64,000 nucleotides of DNA from an uncultured Hyphomicrobiales bacterium (lineage in GTDB: Bacteria; Bacteroidota; Ignavibacteria; Kapaibacteriales; UBA2268): NCBI GenBank assembly GCA_964473465.1, contig CAYYPE010000011.1:555-64554 (forward strand), read 5' to 3'. Shown here piece after piece: positions 24,951 to 50,962 of this stretch (positions within the stretch are counted from its first letter, which is position 1; each line of letters opens with the position of its first letter). A program made the translations under genes and the position numbers. Under the pieces are notes generated by a model. The model made no database searches. It worked only from the letters and a program-made list of their open reading frames with translations, and was not told the origin of the DNA.

Positions 24951-26255
24951 ATGATAGAAAAATTTATCCTTAATTTTCATTTTTGTTCAAAGATAACAAT
25001 TTATTTATTTATATCCGGAACTGTTTTTTTTGCTACTAAACATAATCTCAAGTCCGAATGGGTAGATATAAGCCCAAAATCACTGAATCTGAAGGAGACA
25101 ATTTACGATATAAGCTTTGTAGATAATGATACTGCTTACGCTGTTGGTTGGAGTTCTTCCCGTTCCATTATTTTGAAGACAACAAATAGTGGCAAAGACT
25201 GGCAATTAAGGGAAATAAAGGGTTTTTATTTTTTTTCAGTTGAAGCTATTGCAGAAAAAATATTCATTGTAGGATATTCAGCCAGATGTATGTGTGGAGT
25301 TTTTTATTACTCTTTTGACAATGGTGAGAACTGGAATTTTTATGAATTTGATGGCGAAAAGATGCCTTTGACATTTGGAGCAATGAAGATAAGGAAAGAT
25401 CTTAGTAATAAATACTTCGTTACTGGTTTTAATGGCATAATTATCTTTTCGGAAGATGATGGGGAAAGTTGGGAATATGCCAAAACAGATAATAATACCG
25501 ATATTTTCCGGGATATTGTTTTTCTAAACGAAATAAATTATTTTTCAATAGCTGGCAAGAATTCAATCTTTTCAGATAAGATTTACATTTCATATAATTC
25601 CGGGGAAAAATGGGATTTATATTCAGATTTGTCAGATAAGCAAATCTCAATAAGCGGATTTCATTTTTTTAGTCCTGAGACTGGTTTCATTTTCGGAATT
25701 GGTCATGGTCAGGAGGCAATATATCATACTAATGATGGTGGAAAAAGCTGGAATCAGGTTTATCAGGGAGAAGTCGGTTATAATTTATTCAATGGATTAT
25801 TCATAAATGATAAGATAGGATTTACGGCAAAGCGTAAGGGGATGATATTTCAAACTACTGACGGGGGAAATTATTGGTTTGATGTTCAAACTCCATCAAA
25901 TAATAATATCAGGGGATTTAGAGCATATCAATATAATGGATTGCAAAATGTTTTTGCATTCGGAGAAAATGGGACAATTTTGAAATTTTCGATTGTTACA
26001 TCTGTTGATGGTGAGAATACTAAGTTTATCCTATCACCAAATCCAGCAGAGTCTTATATTGAATTTGATTTAGAAAATCATTTGCTCTATAAGAAAGGAG
26101 AAATATATAATTTACTTGGTGAAAAAGTTATCACCATAATGGATTTTAGAGAAAAAAATTTTGTAAATCTCGTGAATTTGAAAAATGGCTTATATATCCT
26201 TGTATTATATAATACTTACGGCGAAACAACCACAATAAAATTTCAAAAAAATTAA
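24951..26255 (+). CDS. T9SS-secreted beta-propeller protein (BNR/Ycf48-like repeats) with a type-A Por C-terminal sorting domain
   Basis: Repeated S/T-x-D-x-G-x-x-W motifs (TNSGKDWQ, DDGESWE, SGEKWD, DGGKSWN, DGGNYW). The C-terminus LSPNPAESYIEFDL…NGLYILVLYNTYGETTTIKF matches the T9SS CTD. Confidence 0.7.
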   Translation: MIEKFILNFHFCSKITIYLFISGTVFFATKHNLKSEWVDISPKSLNLKETIYDISFVDNDTAYAVGWSSSRSIILKTTNSGKDWQLREIKGFYFFSVEAIAEKIFIVGYSARCMCGVFYYSFDNGENWNFYEFDGEKMPLTFGAMKIRKDLSNKYFVTGFNGIIIFSEDDGESWEYAKTDNNTDIFRDIVFLNEINYFSIAGKNSIFSDKIYISYNSGEKWDLYSDLSDKQISISGFHFFSPETGFIFGIGHGQEAIYHTNDGGKSWNQVYQGEVGYNLFNGLFINDKIGFTAKRKGMIFQTTDGGNYWFDVQTPSNNNIRGFRAYQYNGLQNVFAFGENGTILKFSIVTSVDGENTKFILSPNPAESYIEFDLENHLLYKKGEIYNLLGEKVITIMDFREKNFVNLVNLKNGLYILVLYNTYGETTTIKFQKN

Positions 26256-26456: not shown

Positions 26457-28148
26457 ATGGAAATCAGAGATAAGAAAATCTTGGTACTTGGTGGATGGGG
26501 GCTGGTAGGTTCAGCGATTTGCCATAAACTTATGGAGCATAATCCATCGGCAATTATTATTTCGTCATTAAGAGAAAGCGAAGCAAAGGAAGCAATCGAA
26601 GCTCTTCGTAAAGAGTATAGCAGCAAAAATCCCGAAATGTTTATTCCGAAATGGGGTAATATTTTTACTCGCACAGAGTTTAAGGATAAAAACTGGTCAG
26701 ATGTTTTAGCCAACCGGGAATTGCGAAAGCTTGTTATCAATGATATATATGATGAACTTGACGATAGCATTCTGAAGGGTTCAGCCATATATGAATTAGT
26801 TAGTGAAACAAAACCGGATATTGTTATTGACTGTATTAATACTGCTACAGCAATTGCTTATCAGGATGTTTATAATACTTCGAGAGCAGTTCGAAACGAT
26901 CTGACAAAAAACAACCTCAACGAAGATTCAGTAGAACGTTTACTTGCAAGTATTTACATGCCGCAGTTGATAAGACATGTCCAGCTTGTTTACAGAAGCC
27001 TTGTTGATAATAACGTGAGAATGTATTTTAAGATTGGAACCAGCGGAACAGGCGGTATGGGATTAAATATACCCTATACTCACAGCGAGGAAAGTCCATC
27101 GAGAGTTCTTTTAGCAAAATCAAGCGTTGCAGGGGCTCAAACACTTTTACTTTTTTTAATGGCACGCACTCCAAACGCACCATTGGTAAAAGAAATCAAA
27201 CCTACAGCAGCTATAGCCTGGAAAAGAATTGCTTATGACAAAGTTTATCGCAAGGGCCAGCCAATCAGATTGGTTGATATGAATATCAATGACGCAAGGC
27301 CAATAAACGAACCCTTCCGCAAAGATGATTTGACTGGCGTTCAGGATTTAAACAAAGATTATGAGTCAGTTTTCATCGATACAGGTGAAAATGGCATTTT
27401 TTCCAAAGGGGAATTTCAGGCCATAAGTTCCTTAGGGCAGATGGAAGTTGTAACCCCCGAAGATATTGCAGTTTATACTATATTCGAAATTCTTGGAGGA
27501 AATACTGGCCACGATATTATTCAAGGACTTGATAGTTTCTCTCTCGGACCAACGTACAGAGGAGGTATGCTTCACAATCAAGCCTTGAGAAAACTAAATG
27601 AATTGGAGAAACAACATAATAATCATAGTATTGCCTTCGAAGCATTAGGACCACCAAGACTATCAAAGTTGCTTTATGAAGCTCACATTATAAATTTGGT
27701 TGTCGGGAAAATAAAAAATATTAGAAATTATTCTCCTGAAAAGCTCTCTGATGAAGCCTTTGAGGAAGTCAGCAAAAATAATGTTCTGAGAAGTGAAATG
27801 CTCTCCATTGGTTTGGGCATACTTTTGCCAGACGGGACAAAATACTTGAGAGGAAAAAATCTTATCGTTCCTAATATTGGTTCCGACGAATTGGTTGAAA
27901 TTACTGAAGAATTATTAAATTATTGGTGCAAGAAGGGTTGGATTGATTTAAGACCGACAAATATGCAACTATGGATAGATAGATTTAATAATATTATCTC
28001 TCAAGCTGAAAAAATTTCTGCTGATGAAACAAGTTCTCGCTACACATATAATTCAGATTACTGGGATAACTTTGAAGATATAGATGAAGGAAAGGTTGTG
28101 GGCTGGATTTTTGAATACGAAGATAAAGGCTGGAGATTTAAAAGATAG
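26457..28148 (+). CDS. Saccharopine-dehydrogenase-like NAD(P)-binding protein with a long C-terminal extension; function unknown
   Basis: N-terminal Rossmann motif KILVLGGWGLVGSAICHKL…SSLRESEAKEAIEAL, then KPDIVIDCINTATAIAYQDVY. This parallels carboxynorspermidine/saccharopine dehydrogenases (ILIIGAGGVGSVVAHK…KPQIVLNIALPYQD). The remaining ~350 aa has no recognised motif. Confidence 0.5.
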   Translation: MEIRDKKILVLGGWGLVGSAICHKLMEHNPSAIIISSLRESEAKEAIEALRKEYSSKNPEMFIPKWGNIFTRTEFKDKNWSDVLANRELRKLVINDIYDELDDSILKGSAIYELVSETKPDIVIDCINTATAIAYQDVYNTSRAVRNDLTKNNLNEDSVERLLASIYMPQLIRHVQLVYRSLVDNNVRMYFKIGTSGTGGMGLNIPYTHSEESPSRVLLAKSSVAGAQTLLLFLMARTPNAPLVKEIKPTAAIAWKRIAYDKVYRKGQPIRLVDMNINDARPINEPFRKDDLTGVQDLNKDYESVFIDTGENGIFSKGEFQAISSLGQMEVVTPEDIAVYTIFEILGGNTGHDIIQGLDSFSLGPTYRGGMLHNQALRKLNELEKQHNNHSIAFEALGPPRLSKLLYEAHIINLVVGKIKNIRNYSPEKLSDEAFEEVSKNNVLRSEMLSIGLGILLPDGTKYLRGKNLIVPNIGSDELVEITEELLNYWCKKGWIDLRPTNMQLWIDRFNNIISQAEKISADETSSRYTYNSDYWDNFEDIDEGKVVGWIFEYEDKGWRFKR

Positions 28149-28231
28149 GAAATTATATTTTTTTGAAATTAATATATTATACTAATTAACTTATGTTCAA
28201 TTTATTGCTTTTATTAACACAAGGAGTGCTT

Positions 28232-31200
28232 ATGAAAAAGAAATTACTACTTATTGCTGCTCTTTGCGGATTGTTGTTCTACACAAGCACAACATTTGCA
28301 AATGATAGCAAGCAAGTAGGCGACGAACTTCAAAGAAGAAGTCTTCTTTTTGAAGTTCCGGGATTTTATCAGGGTACAAGCTATCCAATGCCATTTCAGG
28401 AAATTGGAAACCCTGTAAATCGCCCACCTGTTTCCACAGGTTATTACTTTGTTGACAGCGATGACGAAGCTCCGGATTATTGGAGACCTATACCGGAAAT
28501 CGTTGATACAACAGTAGAACCCAACCTATGGCGAAGAATTTTGCCGGGTGCAAGACTTGTTGACCCTCAATACTGGATTGATAATCCACAGGAAGGTCTC
28601 AGGTTTTTCCGTAACCCAGCTTATCCAGCCTCAGATGGGAACTTCTTTACAGGTCCTACTGATTCAACCGATGACGCTATTGCCGGACCTATTCCAATAG
28701 GTTTCAGCTTTATTTTCAACGGTTTAAGGTATGACAGTTTTTATGTTTCAACAAATGGAATAATTGCTTTAACCAACAGAAGATACACTTACGATGCAAC
28801 AGGTCAGAAAGCTATTCTTCCCGGCGCAACCAGTTGTTATGACCCGATGAGCATGGACTGGTTCACAAGAGGAAGATCTGGGGATGGTTTAGCCGACAAC
28901 ACACCTGATAACTGGGGTTATCAGTATTCAGTTCTCGCTAATGCACCGACTTCTGCTACTGCCGGCATCAGAACAAGAGGCGGTTCGCTTGATCAGGCAA
29001 CATTCCAGACCAATAGATCAGCTTTGATTGCACCGTTCTTTGGTGATATGCATCTTTCACAGTTCAATCCTGATCTCAATCAGGCAGAAGATTTTGGGAA
29101 AGTCTATTTCAAACGCTCAAATTCTGCAGATAAACTGATAATTTACTTCATTAATATTGCTCCTCACAGAACACTTGCAACACCATTTGGAAATTATACT
29201 GGTCCAACTGATGCCCGTCCCGGTGTTCCTCAATATATTTCTGGTTCGGCACAGGTTGTATTGAACAGAATAGATAGTAGTGTTACTATTATTTATGAAA
29301 GATTCGAAGGTGTTGCTGTTGTTAGTGGAAGAGGCGTTCCTGCAAATACTGTTTTCAGATATAATACAACAGCAGGTGTATTCGGATATGCCCGCCACGT
29401 TAATTATGGTCAGACAACAGCTCCTGTTTATCCATGGGCAAGTGAATACTATCAGTCAACACACTATTTCATGAAATTTGCAAATGCACAGGCAACTTAT
29501 CCTCATAACTATTTAGCCGTTAAATTCAAACAATGGAAAAATACGGTTCGTGTTGTTGACATTCAATATCGTGTTAGAAAATCCGACCCAAATGCTGATT
29601 TGGATTTCTCAGAGCAAGTACCATCTTCACAGGTTAATAACTATGAATTGCTTGCTGGTGAAGAAAGAATCGGAGCCATTCAACCTGTTGCTTTGATTCA
29701 GAACCTTACCAACAACATTCAGGGACCGCAAGGCAAGAATTTTCAACCACAGCAGTTGAGATTCAGAGCACGTTTCAGAATTATCAACGAAGCTTCCGGA
29801 AGAATTATTTATAACCGTTTGGTTCCAATTGATAGTACCTGTTTGGCTCTTCCAGATTCATTATCTCAGGAATGTACCGGTGATCCGTTCGTAAGGGTAA
29901 GATACGTCAATGTTACCAAATCTGGTGCTAATTATTCCGCATCACCCCTTGCATTCCCTGGAACACAGAGATATAACGGTATTCCACCTTATGGCTATGT
30001 TCAGATTCTCTTCCCGCCATTTGAAGCAAACGAATTCGTTGCTAATCAGATTGGAAGAATGAGAGCTTATATTATAGCTGACCCAACTAACCCAATTACC
30101 AACGAGGGATTAGGTGATGAATGGCCATTTGATGATACGACATTTGTCAGACTTTTTGTTATGAAAAGATTGGATGATTTTAGCGATGATGTTACATCAT
30201 TCCATATCGTAAATAGAACTCCAATGCCTTCAACCTTGAAATGGGTAAATATAAATGCTGAGGTACAGGCTGGCGACGAAGTGTCAAAATATCCTTTACC
30301 CCCAAGAGGTGAATATTCAGCAACTAATAATAAAGATTTCACATTTTTGGATCCTAATTTTAGCACATTCAAACTTCAATCACCAGTAATAAGGATGAAC
30401 AGAGACCCTGAACCCCCTGCTAATTCCTACGGCGGTGATGAATTGCGTTCGTTCCCGATCAATTTGATTGGACGATACAATTCAGTCCTTTCTCTTTCTG
30501 TTCAACGTTCACTTTATCAACCTGATTGGCCCAGAGGCTGGAGCGATCAACAGTTAATAGCATGCGAACCGAGAACAGTGGTTAATGGTGATCCATTTAC
30601 AGTTTGGACAAATTATGCTGGTTCTGCTGCATCATTCCCCGATGAGTTTGCTGTTGAGTTGATGCAACCAAGCCCCAACGGAATTCAATATATTACTAAC
30701 GTTGAAGACAAACGCTGGAGAAACCATCCAAGACGTGGAGGAGCAAAAGCAGTAACTAATATGGCTGCTTATATTCTCTATGGTGCTGGTGGTGCTATGA
30801 GAGGTTTCCTCGAGGGCGACAAAGACTCTGCTCTTTCCCCGCCAACTGCAGGTTTCCTTAATGGTTTGAGACCTGATATTTATGACGATGGTATTGACTA
30901 TGAATACAAGAAAATCTTTATTCCAATACCTGATACTTTCATATCAGCTGAAAAAGACGGAGCCAAGAATTTCCGATTCAGATTGAAACTATATTCAAGA
31001 AATCAAGGTTTCGGAGGAAATAAGAAATGTATTTCCTGTATTCCTGACGATGATGACCCATTCTTTGTTGATAACGTAAGGATATTATTCCCGTCAGAAA
31101 TTACAGACCTTGAGATTTCGGTTGTAAAAGCTCAATGGCCTTACACAATAGCACCTGCTTCTCAGGCAGATAAGATTCCAATAAGAGTCAAGATGAGCAA

Positions 31201-32920
31201 TAACACAAGTGTTTATGCTCCTTCATTCCTTGTAAAAGTTATGATATATCGTAATGCCGGTGATCCCTATCCAATCTATTGCCGTGTTCAACCACTGCCC
31301 GGACTTGCTCCCGGAACAGTTCTTGAATATGCTATGCCGGATTGGAATGCAAGAAAAACAGGTCCCGGAAGATATTTCATGCTTGCTAATTTAATCGTTC
31401 CCGGTGGTGATATTGAACCATTGAACGATACTACATTCACTTTCTTCGATTTAAGATTTGGTGATGTTTTCGCTTATGATCCAGCACAAAACCCGAGAAA
31501 TGATGTTCCTGATAACTCATTCACCGGAGTTGCCGGTCGTGGTTTGAACCTTTATGGATTTGCTGCTGGTGGTAATGGTTCTATATATGGTCCTTCCGGC
31601 GGATATGACGGAAACACACTTGGTGCAGGTTATGTTGGTGGTAGCGGTTCCGGTCAGATAGCTGTTAAGTTTACATTGACCAGACCTGACACAATCAAAG
31701 GATACAAGGCATACTTTGGAGAATTAAACCAAGCCGGAGATGATATTTCATTTGAAGTGTATACAGATCAGGGACAACCCGGTTCACCTGTCCCCGGTAC
31801 TTTAATTTACAGACAACGTGGCTATGACGAAGATAGAAGAGACTTCCACTTTGGTGAATATGTCCAATTTAATTTACCAAGGCCTGTTGTTCTAAACGCT
31901 GGAAGTTACTGGATGGCTATCGGTCAAATGGGTGAAACTGGTCTTGAGCTTGGTGCGTCGAAATCAAGAGTTGGAATGAGAACAACAAGTATTTACATTC
32001 CACCGCCAGTTACTGCAGTTGGTCCTGTCGGAGGAAGCGGTTATCATCTTGTTATTGAAAAAGACTTTAGAAGAACTAATCCAAGTGGAAACTTGATTAA
32101 TAATAACTTCTTTGCCTTTGAAAATACAAGAAAGAGCGGACAATGGATTCAGTTTATGCCAACAATTGGTAATCCTGCTTATGCTCACTTACATCACTAT
32201 GGTATTTCACCAGCTGATAATTATACAGCTACACTATCCAGAGGAACATGGATTCCAATGATTAGACCATACTTCGGCAATAGAACTCATAGTACAAACC
32301 CAGAATACGAAATCTGCCCAGATATACCTGTTGAACTTACCAGCTTCGATGGTCAGGTGAGAAGTGGCGGTATTGACCTCTTCTGGGAAACTGCATCTGA
32401 GCATAATAACTATGGTTTCTATGTTGAAAGAAGAGTTGGAACAAAAGAAGATACAGATTGGAATTCAATTGGCTTTGTTAAAGGTGTTGGAAACTCTGCG
32501 GTTGTTAATAGATATAATTACCTCGACAAAGAAGTGGTTCCATTTACTACCTACCAATATCGTTTGAGACAGGTTGACAGAGACGGTATCGAAAATTGCG
32601 AGACCTTCTCCAAGATAATCACCTTGACATATGATAATGTCGAAGAGCTAACTTTAGCTCCTAACTCACCAAATCCATTTACAACAAGCACTCAAATTTC
32701 ATTCTATCTGCCAACAGATGACAATGTTAAACTTGAGATTCTTGATGTCTTTGGAAATGTTGTTAAGACATTATTCAATGGTAATCTACCTGCAAAACAG
32801 CATATCTACAACTGGGATGGTAGAAATGAAGCCGGTTCCTTTGTATCCAGTGGTACATATATCACAAGATTGATAGCCGGTGATCAGGTTAGAACAAGTA
32901 AGATGACATTGGTAAGATAA
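28232..32920 (+). CDS. Giant T9SS-secreted surface protein (1562 aa from the preferred start) with a type-A Por C-terminal sorting domain
   Basis: GGAG precedes the ATG at 28232 (MKKKLLLIAALCGLLFYTSTTFA is a signal peptide). The C-terminus …LAPNSPNPFTTSTQISFYLPTDDNVKLEILDVFGNVVKTLF…SGTYITRLIAG is a CTD. No catalytic motifs are evident in the body. Confidence 0.75.
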   Translation: MKKKLLLIAALCGLLFYTSTTFANDSKQVGDELQRRSLLFEVPGFYQGTSYPMPFQEIGNPVNRPPVSTGYYFVDSDDEAPDYWRPIPEIVDTTVEPNLWRRILPGARLVDPQYWIDNPQEGLRFFRNPAYPASDGNFFTGPTDSTDDAIAGPIPIGFSFIFNGLRYDSFYVSTNGIIALTNRRYTYDATGQKAILPGATSCYDPMSMDWFTRGRSGDGLADNTPDNWGYQYSVLANAPTSATAGIRTRGGSLDQATFQTNRSALIAPFFGDMHLSQFNPDLNQAEDFGKVYFKRSNSADKLIIYFINIAPHRTLATPFGNYTGPTDARPGVPQYISGSAQVVLNRIDSSVTIIYERFEGVAVVSGRGVPANTVFRYNTTAGVFGYARHVNYGQTTAPVYPWASEYYQSTHYFMKFANAQATYPHNYLAVKFKQWKNTVRVVDIQYRVRKSDPNADLDFSEQVPSSQVNNYELLAGEERIGAIQPVALIQNLTNNIQGPQGKNFQPQQLRFRARFRIINEASGRIIYNRLVPIDSTCLALPDSLSQECTGDPFVRVRYVNVTKSGANYSASPLAFPGTQRYNGIPPYGYVQILFPPFEANEFVANQIGRMRAYIIADPTNPITNEGLGDEWPFDDTTFVRLFVMKRLDDFSDDVTSFHIVNRTPMPSTLKWVNINAEVQAGDEVSKYPLPPRGEYSATNNKDFTFLDPNFSTFKLQSPVIRMNRDPEPPANSYGGDELRSFPINLIGRYNSVLSLSVQRSLYQPDWPRGWSDQQLIACEPRTVVNGDPFTVWTNYAGSAASFPDEFAVELMQPSPNGIQYITNVEDKRWRNHPRRGGAKAVTNMAAYILYGAGGAMRGFLEGDKDSALSPPTAGFLNGLRPDIYDDGIDYEYKKIFIPIPDTFISAEKDGAKNFRFRLKLYSRNQGFGGNKKCISCIPDDDDPFFVDNVRILFPSEITDLEISVVKAQWPYTIAPASQADKIPIRVKMSNNTSVYAPSFLVKVMIYRNAGDPYPIYCRVQPLPGLAPGTVLEYAMPDWNARKTGPGRYFMLANLIVPGGDIEPLNDTTFTFFDLRFGDVFAYDPAQNPRNDVPDNSFTGVAGRGLNLYGFAAGGNGSIYGPSGGYDGNTLGAGYVGGSGSGQIAVKFTLTRPDTIKGYKAYFGELNQAGDDISFEVYTDQGQPGSPVPGTLIYRQRGYDEDRRDFHFGEYVQFNLPRPVVLNAGSYWMAIGQMGETGLELGASKSRVGMRTTSIYIPPPVTAVGPVGGSGYHLVIEKDFRRTNPSGNLINNNFFAFENTRKSGQWIQFMPTIGNPAYAHLHHYGISPADNYTATLSRGTWIPMIRPYFGNRTHSTNPEYEICPDIPVELTSFDGQVRSGGIDLFWETASEHNNYGFYVERRVGTKEDTDWNSIGFVKGVGNSAVVNRYNYLDKEVVPFTTYQYRLRQVDRDGIENCETFSKIITLTYDNVEELTLAPNSPNPFTTSTQISFYLPTDDNVKLEILDVFGNVVKTLFNGNLPAKQHIYNWDGRNEAGSFVSSGTYITRLIAGDQVRTSKMTLVR

Positions 32921-33682: not shown

Positions 33683-33716
33683 AATAAAAAGGCTATCTCT
33701 TGAAATTGAGACAGCC
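33683..33716 (-). terminator. Rho-independent terminator of the 33742-35583 gene (minus strand)
   Basis: On the minus strand, ggctgtctc–aatttcaa–gagatagcc (9-bp stem, one mismatch) is followed by TTTTTATTTT. Confidence 0.55.
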
Positions 33717-33741
33717 CCTTGATTTCTTATGGAATTAGTAA

Positions 33742-35583
33742 TTATTCAAGAGAAATTAAAGGTAAAATATATCTTTCACCTTTATATTGAGCTACAAGAA
33801 AATATAAACCCTGACTTGAGTTAAAATCAATCTTTATTGAACCTTCACCTTTTGAAATAGCTTCAAAGGTATTATATTGCTGATTTCCAAATAAATCGTA
33901 AATTGAAAACTCAACCATTTCCGTGAGATTTTCTATTGCTTTGTAATTGATATTGAAAGAATTATTGAATGGATTTGGTGATGCCCAAATCTCAAAAAGA
34001 TTATTATCAAAACTCATAACATCATTATCAGCAGATAGGCTTGAGACCACTTCACCTTCAAGTTCAACAAAGAAATCTTTTTCGTTGAAAGCATCGCTTG
34101 ATATTTTTATCAAGCCTTTATATACTCTTTCTTGCGGACGATAGGAAAATCTTACAATGACTTTAACAGAATCTTTTGGCTTTATAGATATTGGAACCTT
34201 AACAACTTGATGAAAATTAAATGCATCGTCATCATTCTCTTCAATTTTTAAATAATTGATATTGAGTTCCATATCACCGTCATTACGGATATATAAGTCA
34301 ATATCTTTTTTCAAATCGCTTTGTTTGATCTTACCAAAATCCACCTTTTTGCCGTAATTAGTTGCGATTATTGGACCCTGATTGCCTTTTCCTGCCGTTC
34401 CTACAACATCAACGTATCTATAGTCAGGATTAGAATTGGTATAAATTGATAATTGAGCACTGTAAGATTGCTTATCAACCTTAGGAGTGAATCGAATCAC
34501 TACTTTATGAGACTGACCTTTTTTAAGTGTAACGGGTTTATTGGTTTTTACCTCCCCGTCAACGATCTGGAAAGCAGCATCTTCTTCCCACCATGATGTT
34601 TCCTTAATTATCAGGTTTTCCGTTCCAATGCTTTTAAGTTCTAATTCAATATCTCTTGTTGAATCAACAGGAACATGCCCGAAATCAATTCTCAATGGTT
34701 CAATTGAAAGAACAGGACCATCAGGAGGGATATTTCCCAGAAGCCATACCATTGCACGATAGAGGAGAGAACCTCTCGGAATATCACCTGCAAATCCTTC
34801 GAAACCCATACTCCATGCAGCAATTCTCGATTTACCCCATTCAGCTTTAATTCCTACTAAAGTATCGGTTGCATAAGCGTTGTTCTTTCTAATTATGTGA
34901 TCAACAGGCTGAAATTTATTTCTGTCCATTGTCTCGAATACAATAACACTTAAATAATTTGCGAGGGGCCACCATACTTCATCTCCAGCATTGAAACCAA
35001 TATTACACCACTTAACGATGTTTTTTCCTATCTGGCATTCCAGATCTCCACGAACCCAGAATGACCACCACATGATAGTATTTCCCTGAATTTGGTGGAA
35101 TGGAAGAACCCCGATGTATTTAATGCCGAGTGTGTCAGTGAGAAATTTTTGGACTTCTGTGCTTTTATTGCTGCTTGCTGGGTCGAAGGCATACCAGACG
35201 AATTTTCGCCCGGTTATCATAACGTTCTTTCCTGCTGCTATCATCTCCCTGATTTTTTCCAAAACGTTAAGCCCCCCGACACTTGCATTCAAAGGCAAAT
35301 CTCCAAGTGGAAATACTGCTAAATCATAGTCGGTTATTTTGTATTGACTGAAGGTTGAAGATGAAAAACTTGCCACCTTCGCATATTTAGCGTAAGTGTC
35401 TGTATGAGCCTCATCGGTGAAATATTTACCATAAGCTTCGTTTGCAAATTCTGTGTCAAAATTATTGAAAAGGATGTATTTATAGGGATTCACCTGTAAA
35501 TCGTATTTTTTATCTTCTCCTTTAGCAATAAATAAGGGGAAAATTAAAATTATAATAATGAAAAATTGTAACTGCTTTTTCAT
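33742..35583 (-). CDS. T9SS cargo protein, paralog A: shared ~250-aa N-terminal alpha/beta domain + 2 ASH/choice-of-anchor-D Ig-like domains + Por CTD
   Basis: Signal peptide. N-terminal domain motifs DYDLAVFPLGDLPL…GKNVMITGRKFVWYAFDP…FLTDTLGIKYI…RAMVWLLG. Ig-like segments IDFGHVPVDSTRDIELELKSIGTENLII and VDFGKIKQSDLKKDIDLYIRNDGDMEL. C-terminus …ASPNPFNNSFNINY…GLYFLVAQY. Confidence 0.75.
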   Translation of the reverse strand: MKKQLQFFIIIILIFPLFIAKGEDKKYDLQVNPYKYILFNNFDTEFANEAYGKYFTDEAHTDTYAKYAKVASFSSSTFSQYKITDYDLAVFPLGDLPLNASVGGLNVLEKIREMIAAGKNVMITGRKFVWYAFDPASSNKSTEVQKFLTDTLGIKYIGVLPFHQIQGNTIMWWSFWVRGDLECQIGKNIVKWCNIGFNAGDEVWWPLANYLSVIVFETMDRNKFQPVDHIIRKNNAYATDTLVGIKAEWGKSRIAAWSMGFEGFAGDIPRGSLLYRAMVWLLGNIPPDGPVLSIEPLRIDFGHVPVDSTRDIELELKSIGTENLIIKETSWWEEDAAFQIVDGEVKTNKPVTLKKGQSHKVVIRFTPKVDKQSYSAQLSIYTNSNPDYRYVDVVGTAGKGNQGPIIATNYGKKVDFGKIKQSDLKKDIDLYIRNDGDMELNINYLKIEENDDDAFNFHQVVKVPISIKPKDSVKVIVRFSYRPQERVYKGLIKISSDAFNEKDFFVELEGEVVSSLSADNDVMSFDNNLFEIWASPNPFNNSFNINYKAIENLTEMVEFSIYDLFGNQQYNTFEAISKGEGSIKIDFNSSQGLYFLVAQYKGERYILPLISLE

Positions 35584-35596
35584 TTTCTCCTCTATG

Positions 35597-37369
35597 TTAT
35601 TTTAATAGAATTACTGGTTTTGAATATAATTTATTGTTGTTTTCTATAGTAATATAATACAATCCGCTGCTTAATACTTTGTTTATCTGAAATTTTATTT
35701 CGTCCTGAATTATTGGCTCAACAGACGTATTAAAAACTAATCTTCCATCTGAAGAAACCAAACTTATTTTTATAGGTGAATAAGCAGGCTTAATTAATTT
35801 GATAATTATCTCAGATTTGTCAGTCATAGGGTTAGAAATAACATTGAATGAAAAATCGGTATAATTATCATCATTAACCTGACTTGGGGAAGTGCCCTCA
35901 CCAGTCAGTTGAATTTCAAATACTGGGGAATTCAGTGCATCAGAATAAATTCTTAGTGTGCCGTTATAGATTTTTTCCTCTTTGGGCTGGAAATATACTT
36001 CTTTTAATTTTTTTCCTCCGGGAGGGATTTTTGCACTTGTAACTCCGTCTCCAAAGAAAATTTGATCGGCATCATCGAAGATTAACATACTATCTACGCT
36101 TAAATTAACATTACCTGAATTAATAATATCAAAGGACCTGGAAACTTTTTCTCCTATTGGGGTTTTTCCAAAATCTAATTTATTACCAGTCAAACTAACG
36201 GAAATAAGCCCACCAGACCTGATATCTCCGTTTCCGGTAAGATTCACTGCTTTTTCGGACTCTGTTTGAGAATTCGATTTAATGATTAAAAAATCAGCGT
36301 AATAGCCCTTTTCTTTTGGTTTGAATCGGAGTGTTACGGTGTGAACCTCTCCCGATTTGAGAGTTAAGGGATTTCCCCCATCAATAATTGAGAAGGCATT
36401 TTTGCCGCTGAAATTTTCGACTTCAATTGAACTTACTATCAAATCCTGAGTGCCAATATTTCGAAAGCTAACAGTTGATTCGGAGCTATCACCAACATAA
36501 ACATAGCCAAAATCAACATTTTCGTCAAGAGATTGAATCTGTGCACCGGGTTGAAGCTCTCCTTCGGTTAACCATTTCATACCTCTTTCAATGATGGAGT
36601 AACGATAGATATTTCCTGCAATATTTTCAAATCCATAACTCCAAAAAACAATCTTTGATTTTCCAACCTGAGTTCTGATTCCGAGTAATGTGTCATTCAA
36701 AGGTGCCGGGTGTGTCCTTGTGAAAATATCTACCGGAAAATATTTGTTTGGGTCTTTGGTTTTAAAAACATCAACATAAAGAACTGTGTCTAATGGTGTA
36801 TGCTTGGTTGAGCCTTGTATATAAGTCTGATTGCAGAACCTGACATCAGCTTTGCCAATTGGGTCTTTTGGAGACCCTCTAACAACATATCCCTGAAAAT
36901 AAATTGTATTACCGCTAATGTAGTGAACGGGCATCCTTTTAATAAATTCGACACCAAGAATATTTGTAAGAAAATTATTGACTTCAGGATGTTTCACTTG
37001 TGATTTTGGATCAAATTCTCCCCATAGACCATTTTTGGCAATAATCATCACACTTCTTCCTGAATCAATCATCATTTTGATTTTGTCTATCACATAGTGT
37101 TTGCCTGATGGTGTTCTTACACTTAAAGGATATTCACCCATTGCAAAGATTGCAACTTTGTAGTCTGTTATTTTAATTACATCAAGAATTTCATCAGCAA
37201 AAGGAAAAGATTCAACTTCAATTCCGCAATATTCCATCAAATTATTTTCATATACTCTGGGACCGTATTTAACATCCAGATTATTGAAATAAATATATTC
37301 GCAGGAAAACGAGTAAAATAATGGTATAAATAAAGAGAGTAAAGAAAAGAGAAGATTTTTAAGTTTCAT
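35597..37369 (-). CDS. T9SS cargo protein, paralog B (same architecture as paralog A)
   Basis: DYKVAIFAMGEYPL…GRSVMIIAKNGLWGEFDP…FLTNILGVEFI…RGMKWLTEG aligns motif for motif with paralog A. Ig-like segments VDFGYVYVGDSSESTVSFRNIGTQDLIV and LDFGKTPIGEKVSRSFDIINSGNVNL. CTD …VISNPMTDKSEIII…GLYYITIENNN. 13 nt from paralog A. Confidence 0.75.
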   Translation of the reverse strand: MKLKNLLFSLLSLFIPLFYSFSCEYIYFNNLDVKYGPRVYENNLMEYCGIEVESFPFADEILDVIKITDYKVAIFAMGEYPLSVRTPSGKHYVIDKIKMMIDSGRSVMIIAKNGLWGEFDPKSQVKHPEVNNFLTNILGVEFIKRMPVHYISGNTIYFQGYVVRGSPKDPIGKADVRFCNQTYIQGSTKHTPLDTVLYVDVFKTKDPNKYFPVDIFTRTHPAPLNDTLLGIRTQVGKSKIVFWSYGFENIAGNIYRYSIIERGMKWLTEGELQPGAQIQSLDENVDFGYVYVGDSSESTVSFRNIGTQDLIVSSIEVENFSGKNAFSIIDGGNPLTLKSGEVHTVTLRFKPKEKGYYADFLIIKSNSQTESEKAVNLTGNGDIRSGGLISVSLTGNKLDFGKTPIGEKVSRSFDIINSGNVNLSVDSMLIFDDADQIFFGDGVTSAKIPPGGKKLKEVYFQPKEEKIYNGTLRIYSDALNSPVFEIQLTGEGTSPSQVNDDNYTDFSFNVISNPMTDKSEIIIKLIKPAYSPIKISLVSSDGRLVFNTSVEPIIQDEIKFQINKVLSSGLYYITIENNNKLYSKPVILLK

Positions 37370-37519
37370 ATTTGTCTCCTTTAAATAATTGAGACTAATT
37401 TAAAAAAGCATTTTTGGATTCCAACTTTGATATTTAAAAAGGGGAAGAATCCATCTTTTTGTTGAAGATGGATTCGACGCCCTGAATTAATAATAATAAA
37501 TTAAAAGAAATCACAAGAT

Positions 37520-40276
37520 TTACTTATTGATAATAAGGGGTAAATTAACCCTTGTTCCCTCAATATTTGCTAAAATGAAATAAATACCTGAGCTTAAACT
37601 TTCGGCATTAATATCCAATTGATGATTTCCGGGGTTAGTTGTTTGTTCATAAAGTGAACTTATAACTTTTCCACTCATATCAATCAATTGAATGTTAATA
37701 TTCTTAGGTGTATATCCGCCAAGTGTGAAGTCAATTTTACCGATTAAAGATATTGGATTTGGTGTTGCTTTGATCTTAAACAATCCATTCTCAGAAACGG
37801 CCTCGCTAACGGAAGAAGCGACGTCGGATTCACCTACCAATTGAATTTCGAAACTTGGGAAGTTTTTAGCATTTGAAGTTATACTAATTGTTCCCTCGTA
37901 TTTTTTATTTTCCTCTGTTGGGCTAAATTTGACTGTAATAGTTCTGCTATCATCTTTTGGAACAGTCCCGGGTTCGCTTCCATCAACAAATGAAAATACT
38001 TCGTTATCATTTTTTGTGAATTTGATTTCACTAATAACTAAATCTTCACTGCCATTATTGAAAATAATTACATCTTTATTCATAGATTTTCCGGGCTTAA
38101 CCTTAGGCGAAGTCCATTCAAGTTTTTGTTTATTTGCAGAAATTTGAGCACCAGCACCGGGAGCACCTTCGGCAATAAGATTGACAACTTCATCTTTGGC
38201 ATTTTCAGCATTTGAAGTGATAAAGATTGAACCATCATATTTCTTGGCTGCCTTGGGGGTGAATTTTACTGTAACTGCAATCAGTTGTCCTGGTTTTATT
38301 GTTACGGGAGTTGTGCCACCCTCAGTAATTTCAAAAACACCATCTGGGTCGTAATCGGGGTCATTATAAAGTTTTGAAATTATTAAATCTTTGTCGCCAT
38401 CATTTTTTATTGAGAAGGACATTTCTTTGGAAGAGCCAACCTGAACCTTGTCAAAATTCAATGTTGAATTAGATAAAGTAATTTTTGGACCACCAGAAGA
38501 AGTAGTCGTGGTTAACCATTTCATTGCCTGCGAAAGCAATTTAGCCCTTGAACCCTGATCATCGAAAGCTCCTAAATCAAAGCCGCAATAAATAAGTTTT
38601 GCAAATCCATTATCAAACTTAAATCCAGCAATATCAGATGGCTTATTATTATATACGAAACAAGCTGTGGATTTGCTGTTTGATGGTATAGAGAAAATAT
38701 CAGAGAAGAAATTATAACCATTCTGCGGATTTGCATTGCTTGGGGCTATTATATTCATCCCGACGGGGTCTCCATCAATCCCGTTAACATTGTAGCGAAG
38801 CAAACTTATCTGGTTGTTATTCACAGAGTATCTTTGATCGGCTCTTACCCAGTTAACTCCTAATATGTCAGTAAAAAATGTTTTATATTCCCATGGTGCA
38901 TTAAATTGAGCGGTATAAGTATAAAATCCAGTGCAATCCGAGAAAATTAACACGTTCTTTCTCATGCTGATCATTGAATTAATCGTGTTCAGCATTGATT
39001 GTGATAATGGATTGATTATAATATTGCCACCAAAATATGAAGATGTGCTGAAAATTGCTACATCAAAGTTAGTCGGTGGATATGCCTGAATAGTTTCGGT
39101 AGCGTAGGGAATTACAGCTAAATCCTTATTGTATGTTGCCAATTGAGCAAAGGCATTAATATAGTGTGTAATCCATGGGTTATAACCCGAATATAAAGCA
39201 TATTTGGTGTCCTCAGTAAGGATATAAAAATCTGCCGTTGTGGGAGCACTTGCCGAATTTGTATTTGGTGTTGCTTTTATTATTATTGCGGCAAAACCAG
39301 CGTTATCTTTGGTCTTCACTGTAACAGTCAATTCTGTGGAAGCATTAGCTGCCAACGTTGTTGATGTTGGGCTGACAGTTGCTGTCCATCCTGTTGGGAG
39401 GAAGCTTGTCGGGTCAACAACAATATCAAACTTAAGGCTTGATTTATTAGGATTTGTTAAAGTAATTTTCTTTGTCAAAGTATTATTTCTGGCAGATGTG
39501 AGGAACCTATCGGCGATTGTTTCGAATTTGCCGGTAACCATACTCTGAGCAGCCTGATATACTTCTTTTGTTGCATCATCCTGAACAAAAGCGACAACAT
39601 AAATTTTCGCTTTATCCCAACCGGACTGAATTGTGTAAGTATGTGTAAATTTCTTAGTTTCATCTGCTGCAAGATTAATAGTTGTTCCATTATGATCGGG
39701 CAACATTTTTCTAACAACCCATGGAAATTCTTTTTCACCGTTAGAGCCCGGTGGTGTTGAAAAAACAACATTTTGTTCAACCACGCAAATTCTAAGCTTC
39801 TTGTTTGATAATGCTTGTGAAGTGTGAATTTCAACATCAACAGATGAGTTTGAACCAGTCCTTGTCTCTGTTACATTGAGTGTAATCGGAGACATTTGAG
39901 TTCTTAATGAAGCAAGTGAGGAGCCAATATTTGCTATACTTGCGGGATGACCCCGAACTGTTCCAAGAAAAACATAATGAGGAACACCATTAACTTGATA
40001 ATAACTCGTCCTTCCATTATGCATTGTAGGGTTCTCGGCATTAAAAGGGTCGGAACCGGGAAAATTAGGATGGAATACTATTGGTATTAATACATCCAGA
40101 TTATTACTCACGTAACTTTTAAAAGTTGGATTTGAAGCAGCACAAGGTCCGCAAGATGCATTAGTAAATTCCTCCAGAAGTCCTTTTTTGGGGGAATCTG
40201 CAAAGCTGAGATGAATACAAAACAGGAAACTGATTGAAATCATCAATAAGCTTGTAAAGCGTTTTAAATTAATCAT
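37520..40276 (-). CDS. T9SS cargo protein, paralog C: N-terminal thioredoxin-like (CGPC) domain + Ig-like domain + shared N-domain + 3 ASH/choice-of-anchor-D domains + Por CTD
   Basis: 918 aa. Near the N-terminus, EEFTNASCGPCAASNPTFKSY…NGVPHYVFLG has the thioredoxin-fold pattern, including the cis-Pro position. Shared-domain motifs DVAIFSTSSYFGG…RKNVLIFSDCTGFYTYTAQFNAPWEYKTFFTDILGVNWV…QAMKWLTTT. Ig-like segments LNFDKVQVGSSKEMSFSIKNDGDKDLII and similar. CTD ATPNPISLIGKIDF…GIYFILANIEG. Confidence 0.75.
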   Translation of the reverse strand: MINLKRFTSLLMISISFLFCIHLSFADSPKKGLLEEFTNASCGPCAASNPTFKSYVSNNLDVLIPIVFHPNFPGSDPFNAENPTMHNGRTSYYQVNGVPHYVFLGTVRGHPASIANIGSSLASLRTQMSPITLNVTETRTGSNSSVDVEIHTSQALSNKKLRICVVEQNVVFSTPPGSNGEKEFPWVVRKMLPDHNGTTINLAADETKKFTHTYTIQSGWDKAKIYVVAFVQDDATKEVYQAAQSMVTGKFETIADRFLTSARNNTLTKKITLTNPNKSSLKFDIVVDPTSFLPTGWTATVSPTSTTLAANASTELTVTVKTKDNAGFAAIIIKATPNTNSASAPTTADFYILTEDTKYALYSGYNPWITHYINAFAQLATYNKDLAVIPYATETIQAYPPTNFDVAIFSTSSYFGGNIIINPLSQSMLNTINSMISMRKNVLIFSDCTGFYTYTAQFNAPWEYKTFFTDILGVNWVRADQRYSVNNNQISLLRYNVNGIDGDPVGMNIIAPSNANPQNGYNFFSDIFSIPSNSKSTACFVYNNKPSDIAGFKFDNGFAKLIYCGFDLGAFDDQGSRAKLLSQAMKWLTTTTSSGGPKITLSNSTLNFDKVQVGSSKEMSFSIKNDGDKDLIISKLYNDPDYDPDGVFEITEGGTTPVTIKPGQLIAVTVKFTPKAAKKYDGSIFITSNAENAKDEVVNLIAEGAPGAGAQISANKQKLEWTSPKVKPGKSMNKDVIIFNNGSEDLVISEIKFTKNDNEVFSFVDGSEPGTVPKDDSRTITVKFSPTEENKKYEGTISITSNAKNFPSFEIQLVGESDVASSVSEAVSENGLFKIKATPNPISLIGKIDFTLGGYTPKNINIQLIDMSGKVISSLYEQTTNPGNHQLDINAESLSSGIYFILANIEGTRVNLPLIINK

Positions 40277-48004: not shown

Positions 48005-50962
48005 TTATTTTCCGATAAAAACAGGATGGATTTCTTTTGTTCCGTCTGATAATTCAAGGCTAATATAATAAAGACCATTAGAAACCAACATTCCGGCGTG
48101 ATTTTCACCTTTCCATCTATCGCAATAAGCTATATTTGGCATTCTTAAAACATTTTTTACCGGTTCGGCTACCAATCTGTTATTTTGATCATAAATTTTG
48201 ATTGATAAATTTGATTCTTTTTTCAGTATATAAACAATTTCTAATTCTTCTGCTGGCGGTTCAAAAGGATTTGGAGCCACCATTATTATAAATTTTGGTT
48301 TTGAATTCAGTAGAGTTGTGTCCTTTTGCAAACACGAATTCTCGCAACAAAATCGAAATATCAAGTCATCGGGATAATCACTTCGAGCTTGCCAGATATA
48401 TTTTTCGTCATCAATTGATTTTTTTGCTACCTGATTGTAAGTTTGTCCATAATCATTCGAAACAAGAATCGAAACGCTATCACAAGGAAACTCTATATCA
48501 TTTTTGTCCCAGAAAAATTTATAATCACAACATAATTCATTGTTTGGTTCTAATTGAACTGGAAATTGTGCTGGTAAAAGTGAAGAACTTATAGTGTCAG
48601 AAATAATTGTGATATTACTGCTTTTTGCAACAATTCTTATAAATAAGTTATTATTTTTAGTATTGCTGGAGCAATCAAAAATATCAAGACAAGGAATGTT
48701 GATTTGATTCTCAAACAAGCCATCGGAGTCCATCAGCAATCTTTGAAAACTTATCCAGTTTAAGCTGTCAATAGAATATTCAATATTTGCAGAATCTATA
48801 CATTGATGTGTTCCGTTCAACATAATTGACTGACCTGAAACTATAGGCTTCGTTCCGAAATCATTCAATGTAACAAAAGGGGTAGATATTTTAATTAACG
48901 AGGAGGAATCATTTATTACGTTGGCATGATCAGCTCTATAAACGATTAATTTTCCTTCTTTGCCAATTAGTAATTCATTAACTTTATAATCATATGAACC
49001 GAAATCACCGGAGTTATCAATATTTTCAGCGATTTCAATCATTTTATTGATAGGTTTACCATCACTATATTCCTGAAATCCAATATTTACTTTCCCATAA
49101 TTTCTGATTATATTTTTCCATCTGATTTGAATTATATCACCGTTGCAATAAACTGCAGGGCGGTCATCTGTATATTTTGGAGCAGTTAGCTGGATTGTAT
49201 TTTTATTAATGGAGCCAATAACATATAATTTACTAAATGTAGTTACAATCAGGTCGTTAAAACCATCCCCTTCAATATCAGCGACAGCTACGTCGGCAAT
49301 AGTCTCATTAGGAAAATCGGTTGAAAAAACAGTTGAAAAGGGTTTTCCAGAACGAAAATCATTACTAAAATAATCATTCATACGAAGAACCTTCAGATTA
49401 GATCCATCTACTATGACTATCTCATCTTTTTGATCAGAAGCACCATCCAGATCATTAACAACTGCAACCCATCCATTGATTTTTTGCGTGGCAATTGTGT
49501 CGAATGGCAATAGATAAGAATCTGGAGGGGTGGTTTTTGGTATTCTGTTCTGACTGTTATATCTTAAAACCAATAACTTGTTACCAGCCACAGACAGTTT
49601 TGGGGAACTATATGTAACTATTAATTCATTGCCTTTATTATTTGGATAATAAGGAAGCCAGCTATTATTGGCATTTCCGTCCACGTTTCCTTTAGCAATT
49701 GACCAGTAATGATTTTTAAACCCGATTAATGGAGGATTTAAATTTTGTGGTTGATAAGAATTAGTTAAGATGTTTCCCTGACTGTCGCAAAGGTAAATTT
49801 TTGGGACTCCAATGGAACTATCAAGTCCAGTGTATTCCTCTAACAATAAAATAAAACTGCTATCAGTATTTTTTGATTGATCTTTAATATCCAGATAGTA
49901 AGTTCTTATTTGGGGTCTTTTAGATAAAGTGTCCAGAAGTGAACTTAGATCTTTGGGACCAATATCCCTTCCGATTTTTGAACTGGTAATATCTGCAGAC
50001 ATTAAATAAGGTTTATTGGCTGATGTCGAGTCATTTAATAAAATTTTATTACCAACTTTTTCATTTATATCAGGAGATGGAAAGTTTGGGAATAGCAAAG
50101 CTGTTTTGATATTTCCAATATTAGTCATAGAAGGCTGGTCGAAGTTTACTTCCGGACCAACTAAAAATCTTGTCGTCGTATCATCCCCGATATCAGGCAT
50201 TGGATAATTATATAAATCAAGACTTGTATTGAATTGTAATAAACCTCTCAGAAATTTATTTTCCGTAAGTGGTGTAAAATTCAAATCAGGTTTTGACATA
50301 TTAATTATTCCGTAAATAATCAGATTTGAACCGGATTTCTTTCCAAAAATCGGTTTTAGACCTGCAAATGTATTTGGTTTATACTTCCTCAAATCCACTG
50401 CTAACCTCCTGATAATAGCTATGGAATCGGCAAATTGATCGAAGCCTGCTATATAGCAGTAAACAAGAGAATCTCTGATATTTTCGAATTCCATTGTTTC
50501 AATTCCAAGAACAAGTGGAGCAGTAACATTATAGCTTAAACCAAAGGATAGAGTATCGAAAAGCACAGAAACATCTTTGATATAAGGTATAGGAAATGAA
50601 TTCTCGGTTCGTTCCCTTCCCATTGCATCAACAACAAGAATTTTTCCTGAGACTACCGCAGTAATCTCATTTGGAGCGTATAAATAGTCAGAATGAATTT
50701 TAGGATTATTAATAATATTACCAATCAATGGTTTCAAATTGCCATGAATTTTTGCATTTGCCCACTTAATTTTGAATTGACTGACATCCTGATTTTTCGA
50801 AGGGTAAATTTGTTGCCTTGTAGCTTGTGGATTTTGTTCTGGATATAACCTGTTAGCAGGGCTTGAATGAAAAACCTGCGAATAACTGTTTGATGTAGTA
50901 ATGAACAGAAAAATTCCTAAAATAAAAAGAAAAAATGGATTTATATTTTTAGTCATATCCAA
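48005..50962 (-). CDS. T9SS-secreted surface protein (FG-GAP-like repeat, Cys-rich C-terminal module, type-A Por CTD)
   Basis: 985 aa with a signal peptide. VAVADIEGDGFNDLIVTT is an FG-GAP-like motif. The C-terminal CTD is VAPNPFEPPAEELEIVYIL…NGLYYISLELSDG. Confidence 0.7.
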   Translation of the reverse strand: MDMTKNINPFFLFILGIFLFITTSNSYSQVFHSSPANRLYPEQNPQATRQQIYPSKNQDVSQFKIKWANAKIHGNLKPLIGNIINNPKIHSDYLYAPNEITAVVSGKILVVDAMGRERTENSFPIPYIKDVSVLFDTLSFGLSYNVTAPLVLGIETMEFENIRDSLVYCYIAGFDQFADSIAIIRRLAVDLRKYKPNTFAGLKPIFGKKSGSNLIIYGIINMSKPDLNFTPLTENKFLRGLLQFNTSLDLYNYPMPDIGDDTTTRFLVGPEVNFDQPSMTNIGNIKTALLFPNFPSPDINEKVGNKILLNDSTSANKPYLMSADITSSKIGRDIGPKDLSSLLDTLSKRPQIRTYYLDIKDQSKNTDSSFILLLEEYTGLDSSIGVPKIYLCDSQGNILTNSYQPQNLNPPLIGFKNHYWSIAKGNVDGNANNSWLPYYPNNKGNELIVTYSSPKLSVAGNKLLVLRYNSQNRIPKTTPPDSYLLPFDTIATQKINGWVAVVNDLDGASDQKDEIVIVDGSNLKVLRMNDYFSNDFRSGKPFSTVFSTDFPNETIADVAVADIEGDGFNDLIVTTFSKLYVIGSINKNTIQLTAPKYTDDRPAVYCNGDIIQIRWKNIIRNYGKVNIGFQEYSDGKPINKMIEIAENIDNSGDFGSYDYKVNELLIGKEGKLIVYRADHANVINDSSSLIKISTPFVTLNDFGTKPIVSGQSIMLNGTHQCIDSANIEYSIDSLNWISFQRLLMDSDGLFENQINIPCLDIFDCSSNTKNNNLFIRIVAKSSNITIISDTISSSLLPAQFPVQLEPNNELCCDYKFFWDKNDIEFPCDSVSILVSNDYGQTYNQVAKKSIDDEKYIWQARSDYPDDLIFRFCCENSCLQKDTTLLNSKPKFIIMVAPNPFEPPAEELEIVYILKKESNLSIKIYDQNNRLVAEPVKNVLRMPNIAYCDRWKGENHAGMLVSNGLYYISLELSDGTKEIHPVFIGK

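Follow-up and report, generated by a model that had tools for sequence, protein, structure and literature searches.

Three neighbouring genes of an uncultured Kapaibacteriales bacterium encode proteins that join the building blocks of a familiar kind of secreted protein to a domain that carries no annotation, which raises the question of what this domain is and what it does. The genes, here called A, B and C, lie head to tail on the minus strand of contig CAYYPE010000011.1 (assembly GCA_964473465.1), of which positions 555 to 64,554 were analysed, a stretch of 64,000 nucleotides (nt) referred to as the window. We show that the shared domain, hereafter the head, represents a ~250-residue, previously unannotated domain family and that it is a pseudo-amidotransferase, having lost the catalytic residues of class-I glutamine amidotransferases (GATases). 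Homology of the heads, their fold, the loss of the catalytic triad, the architectures, distribution and conservation of the family, the age of the gene triad and the purifying selection acting on it are established here. For the function of the head we infer, at slightly better than even probability, an export via a type IX secretion system (T9SS) and a role as a ligand-binding or docking module on an Ig-like stalk.

The heads of the three paralogs are homologous

Sizes and strand of the three open reading frames (ORFs; 613, 590 and 918 amino acids (aa); Table 1) and the gaps of 13 nt between A and B and 150 nt between B and C agree exactly with what an earlier note on this DNA had described. 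Full-length pairwise alignments gave E-values of 5e-85 (A-B), 6e-43 (B-C) and 7e-45 (A-C). Since the Ig-like repeats and C-terminal domains (CTDs) could explain these scores, the heads were compared alone (residues 30-285 of A, 20-272 of B and 351-592 of C), resulting in 39% identity for A-B (E 2e-58), 24% for A-C (E 1e-12) and 22% for B-C (E 6e-12), with 50-174 bits observed for the head pairs vs at most 23.5 bits for composition-preserving shuffles (50 per pair). Homology of the three domains, on which the proposal of a shared family had been made to depend beforehand, is supported by the alignment as well as by the shuffle control.

The three-way alignment shows the listed motifs DY/NF-x-x-A-(V/I)-F, (K/R)xV(M/L)I, F(L/F)TxxLG(I/V) and (A/G)M(K/V)WL in all three proteins, whereas the motif W/FxxF(D/N)P, also thought to be common to them, is restricted to A and B. 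Likewise, an N-terminal position of the domain holds for A and B but not for C, in which it is internal and comes after an Omp28-like and an additional Ig-like domain. No Pfam or NCBIfam model matched the heads of A, B or C even at E≤1, and searches against PDB sequences, with single heads or with a head profile, returned nothing significant, the top match being PfpI at E 0.085; the domain is unassigned, as had been proposed. A fourth copy was not found by comparing the family hidden Markov model (HMM) with the six-frame translation of the window.

When the family profile was run exhaustively with HMMER against 1.84 billion cluster representatives (clusters at 50% identity), 211 proteins were returned at E≤1e-3 and 131 at E≤1e-10. 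With only 211 clusters among 1.84 billion proteins the family is small. In public records its members are named only "hypothetical protein" or "choice-of-anchor D domain-containing protein".

The head is predicted to adopt a class-I GATase-like fold

An AlphaFold model based on the three paralogs alone reached a predicted local distance difference test (pLDDT) score of 64 with residues 129-177 disordered, and its Foldseek matches were non-significant. Including 132 family members resulted in a pLDDT of 96.4 and a predicted template modelling (TM) score of 0.93, and Foldseek matched this model to the ThuA-like structure 4e5v at E 3e-7 with a TM score of ~0.5. The model shows a flavodoxin-like alpha/beta arrangement with a central parallel sheet and the nucleophile-elbow topology of the GATase-like superfamily, and the sequences keep the corresponding motifs FDxAxF..G, GKxVxI and a small-residue nucleophile elbow. 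It thereby places the head as a distinct family in the class-I GATase-like superfamily, the similarity being at the superfamily level, in agreement with the earlier guess of a class-I GATase-like or ThuA-like fold. In the non-significant alignment with PfpI/PH1704, FDxAxF..G pairs with FDALVLPGG and GKxV with GKPVA, from which the nucleophile position follows as the sixth residue after the conserved Lys. Neither profile nor structure searches placed the head in a well-characterised family of known function, and no Pfam assignment resulted; such a placement had been named in advance as speaking against an uncharacterised domain.

The ThuA-like proteins (PF06283; PDB 4e5v, 4jqs and 1t0b) are among the best fold matches and share 10-14% identity with the head. 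PF06283 matched none of A, B and C at E≤1; among 25 diverse members one match was obtained at E 0.022 and none at threshold. Unlike ThuA, the head occurs in fusion with Ig-like repeats and a T9SS CTD, and a ThuB-like neighbour is found in one of ~11 loci. ThuA has been reported as the partner of ThuB (PMC8121099). STM3548 and other "GATase1-like" proteins of unknown function (PDB 2gk3, 3rht) share 10-11% identity with the head and do not match it at the sequence level; for 2gk3 a cytoplasmic location is described, whereas the head family is secreted and modular. GIFT domains (GldG, IFT52, OST48/Wbp1; 5fms, 8bd7, 6s7o, 6c26) are fold relatives as well, with no sequence-level relationship detected; their definition by sequence profiles is said to go back to Beatson and Ponting in 2004. 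GIFT proteins are subunits of membrane complexes, whereas the head proteins are CTD-bearing cargo. GIFT domains have been described as non-catalytic domains (PMC7226087).

A like fold is also found in the GATase-like mid-domains of GH42, GH35-like, GH164 and GH151 glycoside hydrolases (Glyco_hydro_42M; 3tts, 4oif, 7vkw, 6t5o, 6tvk), with no Pfam match to Glyco_hydro_42M and no glycoside hydrolase TIM barrel in A, B, C or 10 sampled homologs. A plain glycoside hydrolase was rejected, as the hydrolase structures match only via these mid-domains and no glycoside hydrolase domain is present. The GH42 mid-domain forms a trimer interface. The strong fold matches to the homologous mid-domains of GH42 (3tts, 4oif, 4ucf, 1kwk), GH164 (6t5o) and GH151 (6tvk) would thus fit a head acting mainly as an oligomerisation module that forms trimers or higher assemblies. 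We consider this rather improbable, as the STM3548 and ThuA-like matches score equal or better and the conserved polar residues described below are harder to account for by a purely architectural role.

The catalytic triad is lost and a set of polar residues is conserved

Across the aligned 132 heads, the nucleophile column holds Gly in 62, Ser in 46, Ala in 14, Thr in 7 and Cys in 3 sequences, and no column anywhere in the alignment contains Cys or His in ≥40% of the sequences. The motif SxGFE is the equivalent of the GATase His-Pro-Glu; its His position is mostly occupied by Gly, while E/D is kept in 75%. The heads therefore lack the conserved Cys or Ser-His-Glu triad of catalytic class-I GATases and of C26, C56 and S51 peptidases. 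As the Cys and His of the triad are absent, the head is a pseudo-amidotransferase, and the statement of the earlier note that no catalytic Cys-His pair is evident extends to the whole alignment. A working class-I GATase or a Cys/Ser peptidase (C26, C56/PfpI, S51) is effectively excluded by the missing triad, by the lack of any GATase or peptidase Pfam match and by an extracellular site that offers no synthase partner.

Conserved across both deep clades of the family are, in the numbering of B, K105 (90%), D169 (89%), N180 (94%), D/E200 (88%), R/K232 (92%), R/K239 (97%) and E/D248 (75%), and in addition W266 (92%); the other positions conserved in both clades are structural Gly, Pro and hydrophobic residues. 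Diagnostic motifs of the family are FDxAxF..G, aGKxVxI, FxxxxLGI, GxxxDP(I/V)GxG, N, GxR, SxGFE and aMxWL. The conservation of seven polar residues (75-97%), together with the very low non-synonymous change in the head, could reflect an active enzyme with a non-canonical site on the GATase-like scaffold, which might be a lyase or hydrolase with extracellular glycans or peptides as substrates, or instead a ThuA-like subunit working with a Gfo/Idh/MocA oxidoreductase in 3-keto-sugar chemistry. This would agree with Ser at the nucleophile elbow in 52% of the internal-head clade, with ThuA-like proteins among the top fold matches and with a Gfo/Idh/MocA gene 14 nt upstream of one member (locus L009). 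We nevertheless regard an active enzyme as unlikely, since the nucleophile is not conserved family-wide (elbow Gly 47%, Ala 11%), no His is conserved, the closest structural relatives are non-catalytic superfamily members, the Gfo/Idh/MocA neighbour occurs in one of ~11 independent loci, and the three tandem divergent head copies beside a C25 peptidase in protein P0103, described below, resemble accessory modules.

Two deep clades track two architectures

Among the best 150 family members, 78 carry the head at the N-terminus (median length 660 aa) and 72 internally (median 811 aa). In a sample of 10 homologs, an Omp28 domain precedes the head of the internal-head members, and nearly all members combine Ig repeats with a Por CTD. 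The first split of a midpoint-rooted neighbour-joining tree of 132 heads separates 56 heads, all of the N-terminal type and with those of A and B among them, from a clade of 76 that are mostly internal, among them that of C, i.e. the paralogs fall into two deep clades tracking architecture. Kapaibacterium is classified in the Bacteroidota. In the genomes identified so far, matches are to metagenome-assembled genomes (MAGs) of Candidatus Kapaibacterium/Kapabacteria, Ignavibacteria and Chloroherpeton; seven genome loci were found with the three-sequence alignment. The window itself has matches in contigs of metagenome assemblies. The literature on T9SS with a GATase-like domain or on Kapabacteria with T9SS, and that on Omp28 with thioredoxin-like or selenoprotein features, yielded nothing on this head family.

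P0103, a protein of 1,879 aa from an ENA metagenome and thus outside the window, combines a C25 (gingipain-like) peptidase and a CARDB domain with three divergent head-like domains (residues 763-925, 1050-1274 and 1457-1628); it lacks a Por CTD and ends in repeats of the form GW-G-x-PV-GDW-G-DG...VG-Y. The head-like triplicate shows that the domain lends itself to reuse as an accessory module.

The N-terminal part of C matches the Omp28-like model PF11551 over residues 28-248 with 61.5 bits vs a cut-off of 34.9 and stays below the cut-offs of the full-length lipoprotein and selenoprotein subfamily models (NF033782, 57.5 vs 150; NF045500, 72.7 vs 200), so that its link to Omp28 is one of domain-level membership only; the closest NCBIfam model is the Omp28-related selenoprotein NF045500. 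The N-terminal 324 residues of C gave nothing significant against PDB sequences. The extra Ig-like domain at about residues 260-327 has weak Pfam matches (NPCBM_assoc at E 0.003, Cep192_D6, BACON_2) and is also present in the homolog P0037. A CxxC motif, mainly CGPC, CPPC or CGWC, occurs within the first 120 residues of 62 of 74 internal-head members, and from these sequence features an extracytoplasmic thiol-redox module fused to the head is suggested for the C-type proteins. Going further, the head could recognise the substrate or carry out catalysis in a new class of surface enzymes displayed by the T9SS in the Kapabacteria, Ignavibacteria and Chlorobi-related lineages. In the older, Omp28-fused subfamily it would act jointly with the thioredoxin-like module in extracellular redox reactions, of the thiol/disulfide or another type, on a bound polymer or mineral, and proteins of the A/B type would have derived from these by retaining the recognition or catalytic head alone. 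We judge this extension distinctly improbable.

Flanking domains and export signals resemble those of T9SS cargo

All three proteins possess an N-terminal Sec signal peptide, as judged from translations inspected by eye, with a basic n-region followed by a hydrophobic stretch of 12-16 residues (A, MKKQLQFFIIIILIFPLFIA; B, MKLKNLLFSLLSLFIPLFYS; C, ...FTSLLMISISFLFCIHLSFA). Pfam and NCBIfam models identify two choice-of-anchor-D/ASH Ig-like repeats after the head in each protein. NF012200 (cut-off 45) scores 81.1 in B and 85.4 in C; A reaches 39.1 with this model and 48.5 with PF22544 (HYDIN_VesB_CFA65-like_Ig; cut-off 25.5), so that each protein lies above the cut-off of at least one model (NF012200 or PF22544/PF15780). 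Of the "two or three" repeats assumed to follow the head, two were found in every protein, the supposed third one of C preceding the head. The Por CTD of C exceeds the curated cut-offs (PF18962, 32.6 vs 27; TIGR04183, 27.4 vs 23). The assignment of a type-A Por CTD to all three proteins thus stands for C, whereas A and B fall just under the cut-offs, although their tails align with the CTD of C and most sampled homologs bear a Por CTD. At least two other Por-CTD proteins are encoded in the window (15117-19124 and 24951-26255), which would imply that a T9SS is in use. With a signal peptide, a functional head, spacers of the Ig type and a Por_Secre_tail CTD (just under the cut-offs in A and B), the layout resembles that of generic T9SS type-A cargo; the difference lies in the head family, which is not yet described in Pfam or NCBIfam.

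The gene triad is old and its genes are under purifying selection

The same C-B-A triad with the same gene sizes is present in two other Kapabacteria MAGs (loci L002 and L003), which share with the window the upstream synteny (M20 peptidase, OPT transporter, AnmK) and differ in the downstream genes. Orthologs of the triad genes are 71-85% identical between the window and these loci (82-83% for A). The heads and Ig repeats show proportions of non-synonymous differences (pN) of 0.05-0.14 vs proportions of synonymous differences (pS) of 0.6-0.86, and signal peptides and CTDs are the fastest-evolving parts. A has ~50%-identical relatives beyond the triad, whereas B is just 39% identical to A. As A is closer to these outside relatives than to B and the gene order is kept in both other genomes, the triad consists of old, maintained and diverged paralogs. 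The earlier note had read the arrangement as a locally expanded, diversifying family; a recent expansion under diversifying selection was rejected on the basis of the shared triad, the low pN/pS of the orthologs and the deep tree split.

A tandem pair of head genes exists in a distant lineage (L013:1-1530 and L013:1553-3373), where the upstream copy is truncated at the end of the contig; P0016 shares 36% identity with the head of B. Two paralogs of the N-terminal-head type lie on different contigs of one assembly. Around distant members no neighbour is conserved among the loci examined, where LemA/DUF3137, isocitrate/isopropylmalate dehydrogenase, a TetR regulator, Hsp90 and an S8 peptidase were seen. 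The Gfo/Idh/MocA (ThuB family) gene at L009:6986-7987 (+) precedes the family member L009:8001-10124; no such neighbour is present in the window, in L002-L008 or in L010-L013. A ThuAB-like pairing as a general trait was rejected, the neighbour being confined to L009.

A model for the function of the head

We propose a model according to which the head would serve in ligand binding or docking, a glycan or a partner protein being the most plausible counterpart, and the Ig-like stalk would hold it away from the cell surface after export by the T9SS. A role in binding or docking is suggested because the nearest structural relatives are non-catalytic, the nucleophile is absent and P0103 repeats the head as an accessory module. 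These relatives, i.e. ThuA with ThuB, the GH42-type mid-domains and GIFT, are partner, docking or putative sugar-binding domains. K105, D169, N180, D/E200, R/K232, R/K239 and E/D248 may form a binding site or a stabilising network. In the C-type subfamily the head would be coupled to the probable thiol-redox module, and the three paralogs may represent long-established, non-redundant versions.

Several points weigh against this model. Strong purifying selection on seven highly conserved residues of charged or polar type would suit an unconventional enzyme equally well. The Por CTD scores are just below the cut-offs in A (PF18962, 25.4) and in B (PF18962, 22.9; TIGR04183, 22.4 vs 23), and core T9SS machinery genes were not found within the 64-kb window. 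The synonymous divergence (dS) between the orthologs is saturated, which makes the omega values rough, their direction being clearly purifying.

Transcription and genomic surroundings

A Shine-Dalgarno-like AAGGAG precedes the start codon of B, and together with the 13-nt gap this suggests co-transcription of a B-A unit. The spacer between C and B contains a stable hairpin followed by a U-run (Table 1), a probable intrinsic terminator, or an attenuator, that would separate C from the B-A unit. Its position is kept in both MAGs sharing the triad (L002:9794-9937 and L003:9793-9937) with compensatory changes in the stem, and a U-run follows it in the window and L002, that of L003 not being clear-cut; a consensus terminator scan did not flag the hairpin. 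The stability of the hairpin and its U-run suggest that C is probably transcribed at least partly separately, and B and A together.

Table 1. Coordinates of the three genes, their encoded domains and the adjacent RNA features within the window
Feature	Position (nt)	Strand	Description
Gene A	33742..35583	-	ORF, 613 aa; signal peptide, head (residues 30-285), two Ig-like repeats, C-terminal sorting domain
Gene B	35597..37369	-	ORF, 590 aa; signal peptide, head (residues 20-272), two Ig-like repeats, C-terminal sorting domain
Gene C	37520..40276	-	ORF, 918 aa; signal peptide, Omp28-like CxxC domain, Ig-like domain, head (residues 350-592), two Ig-like repeats, type-A Por CTD
Head of A (residues 30-285)	34729..35496	-	Predicted class-I GATase-like fold without catalytic triad; family HMM E 2e-79
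Head of B (residues 20-272)	36554..37312	-	Stretch used for structure modelling
Head of C (residues 350-592)	38501..39229	-	Member of the deep internal-head clade; family HMM E 1e-65
Omp28-like domain of C (residues 26-248)	39533..40201	-	PF11551, 61.5 bits; CGPC at residues 42-45 (nt 40142-40153)
Extra NEW3/BACON-like Ig-like domain of C, between Omp28-like domain and head	39230..39532	-	Weak Pfam matches
Two choice-of-anchor-D/ASH Ig-like repeats of C (residues 593-822)	37811..38500	-	Cep192_D4 83.4, HYDIN_VesB_CFA65-like_Ig 74.1, NF012200 85.4 bits
Equivalent Ig-like repeats of A	34039..34728	-	
Equivalent Ig-like repeats of B	35885..36553	-	
Type-A Por CTD of C (residues 823-918)	37523..37810	-	PF18962 and TIGR04183 above cut-off
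Equivalent tail of A	33745..34038	-	Scores just under cut-off; aligns with C
Equivalent tail of B	35600..35884	-	Scores just under cut-off; aligns with C
Hairpin and U-run in the C-B spacer	37436..37483	-	Folding free energy (dG) -20.8 kcal/mol, z -6.9; 0/200 shuffles as stable
Terminator-like hairpin (13 pairs) with T-rich tail just 3' of A	33687..33720	-	Found by terminator scan

The window around the triad is rich in secreted proteins. The gene at 15117-19124 (-) encodes a T9SS-type cargo of 1,335 aa with an IgGFc_binding domain, choice-of-anchor-D Ig repeats and a Por CTD, and that at 24951-26255 (+) a BNR/Ycf48-like beta-propeller of 434 aa with a Por tail of 26.9 bits vs a cut-off of 27. 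A secreted-looking protein of 1,575 aa (28193-32920 (+)) has a C-terminal FlgD_ig domain, a CTD-like sorting tail, as its sole Pfam match, leaving ~1,500 residues without family; its ortholog in L003 comprises 1,564 aa. The ORFs 26457-28148 (563 aa) and 48005-50962 (985 aa) have no Pfam match.

Significance

As a summary, we describe a compact, well-modelled and hitherto unannotated domain family belonging to a known fold superfamily and carried by a familiar kind of secreted protein. The understanding of T9SS and of amidotransferases is unchanged by it, and its value is the definition of a domain of unknown function, for which annotators are provided with a domain boundary, a fold, diagnostic motifs and two architectures. 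With this family, the non-catalytic class-I GATase-like proteins ThuA, GH42M and GIFT, whose functions are poorly understood as well, gain a secreted branch displayed at the surface, and the repeated fusion of the head with an Omp28-like CxxC domain may hint at redox biology outside the cell.

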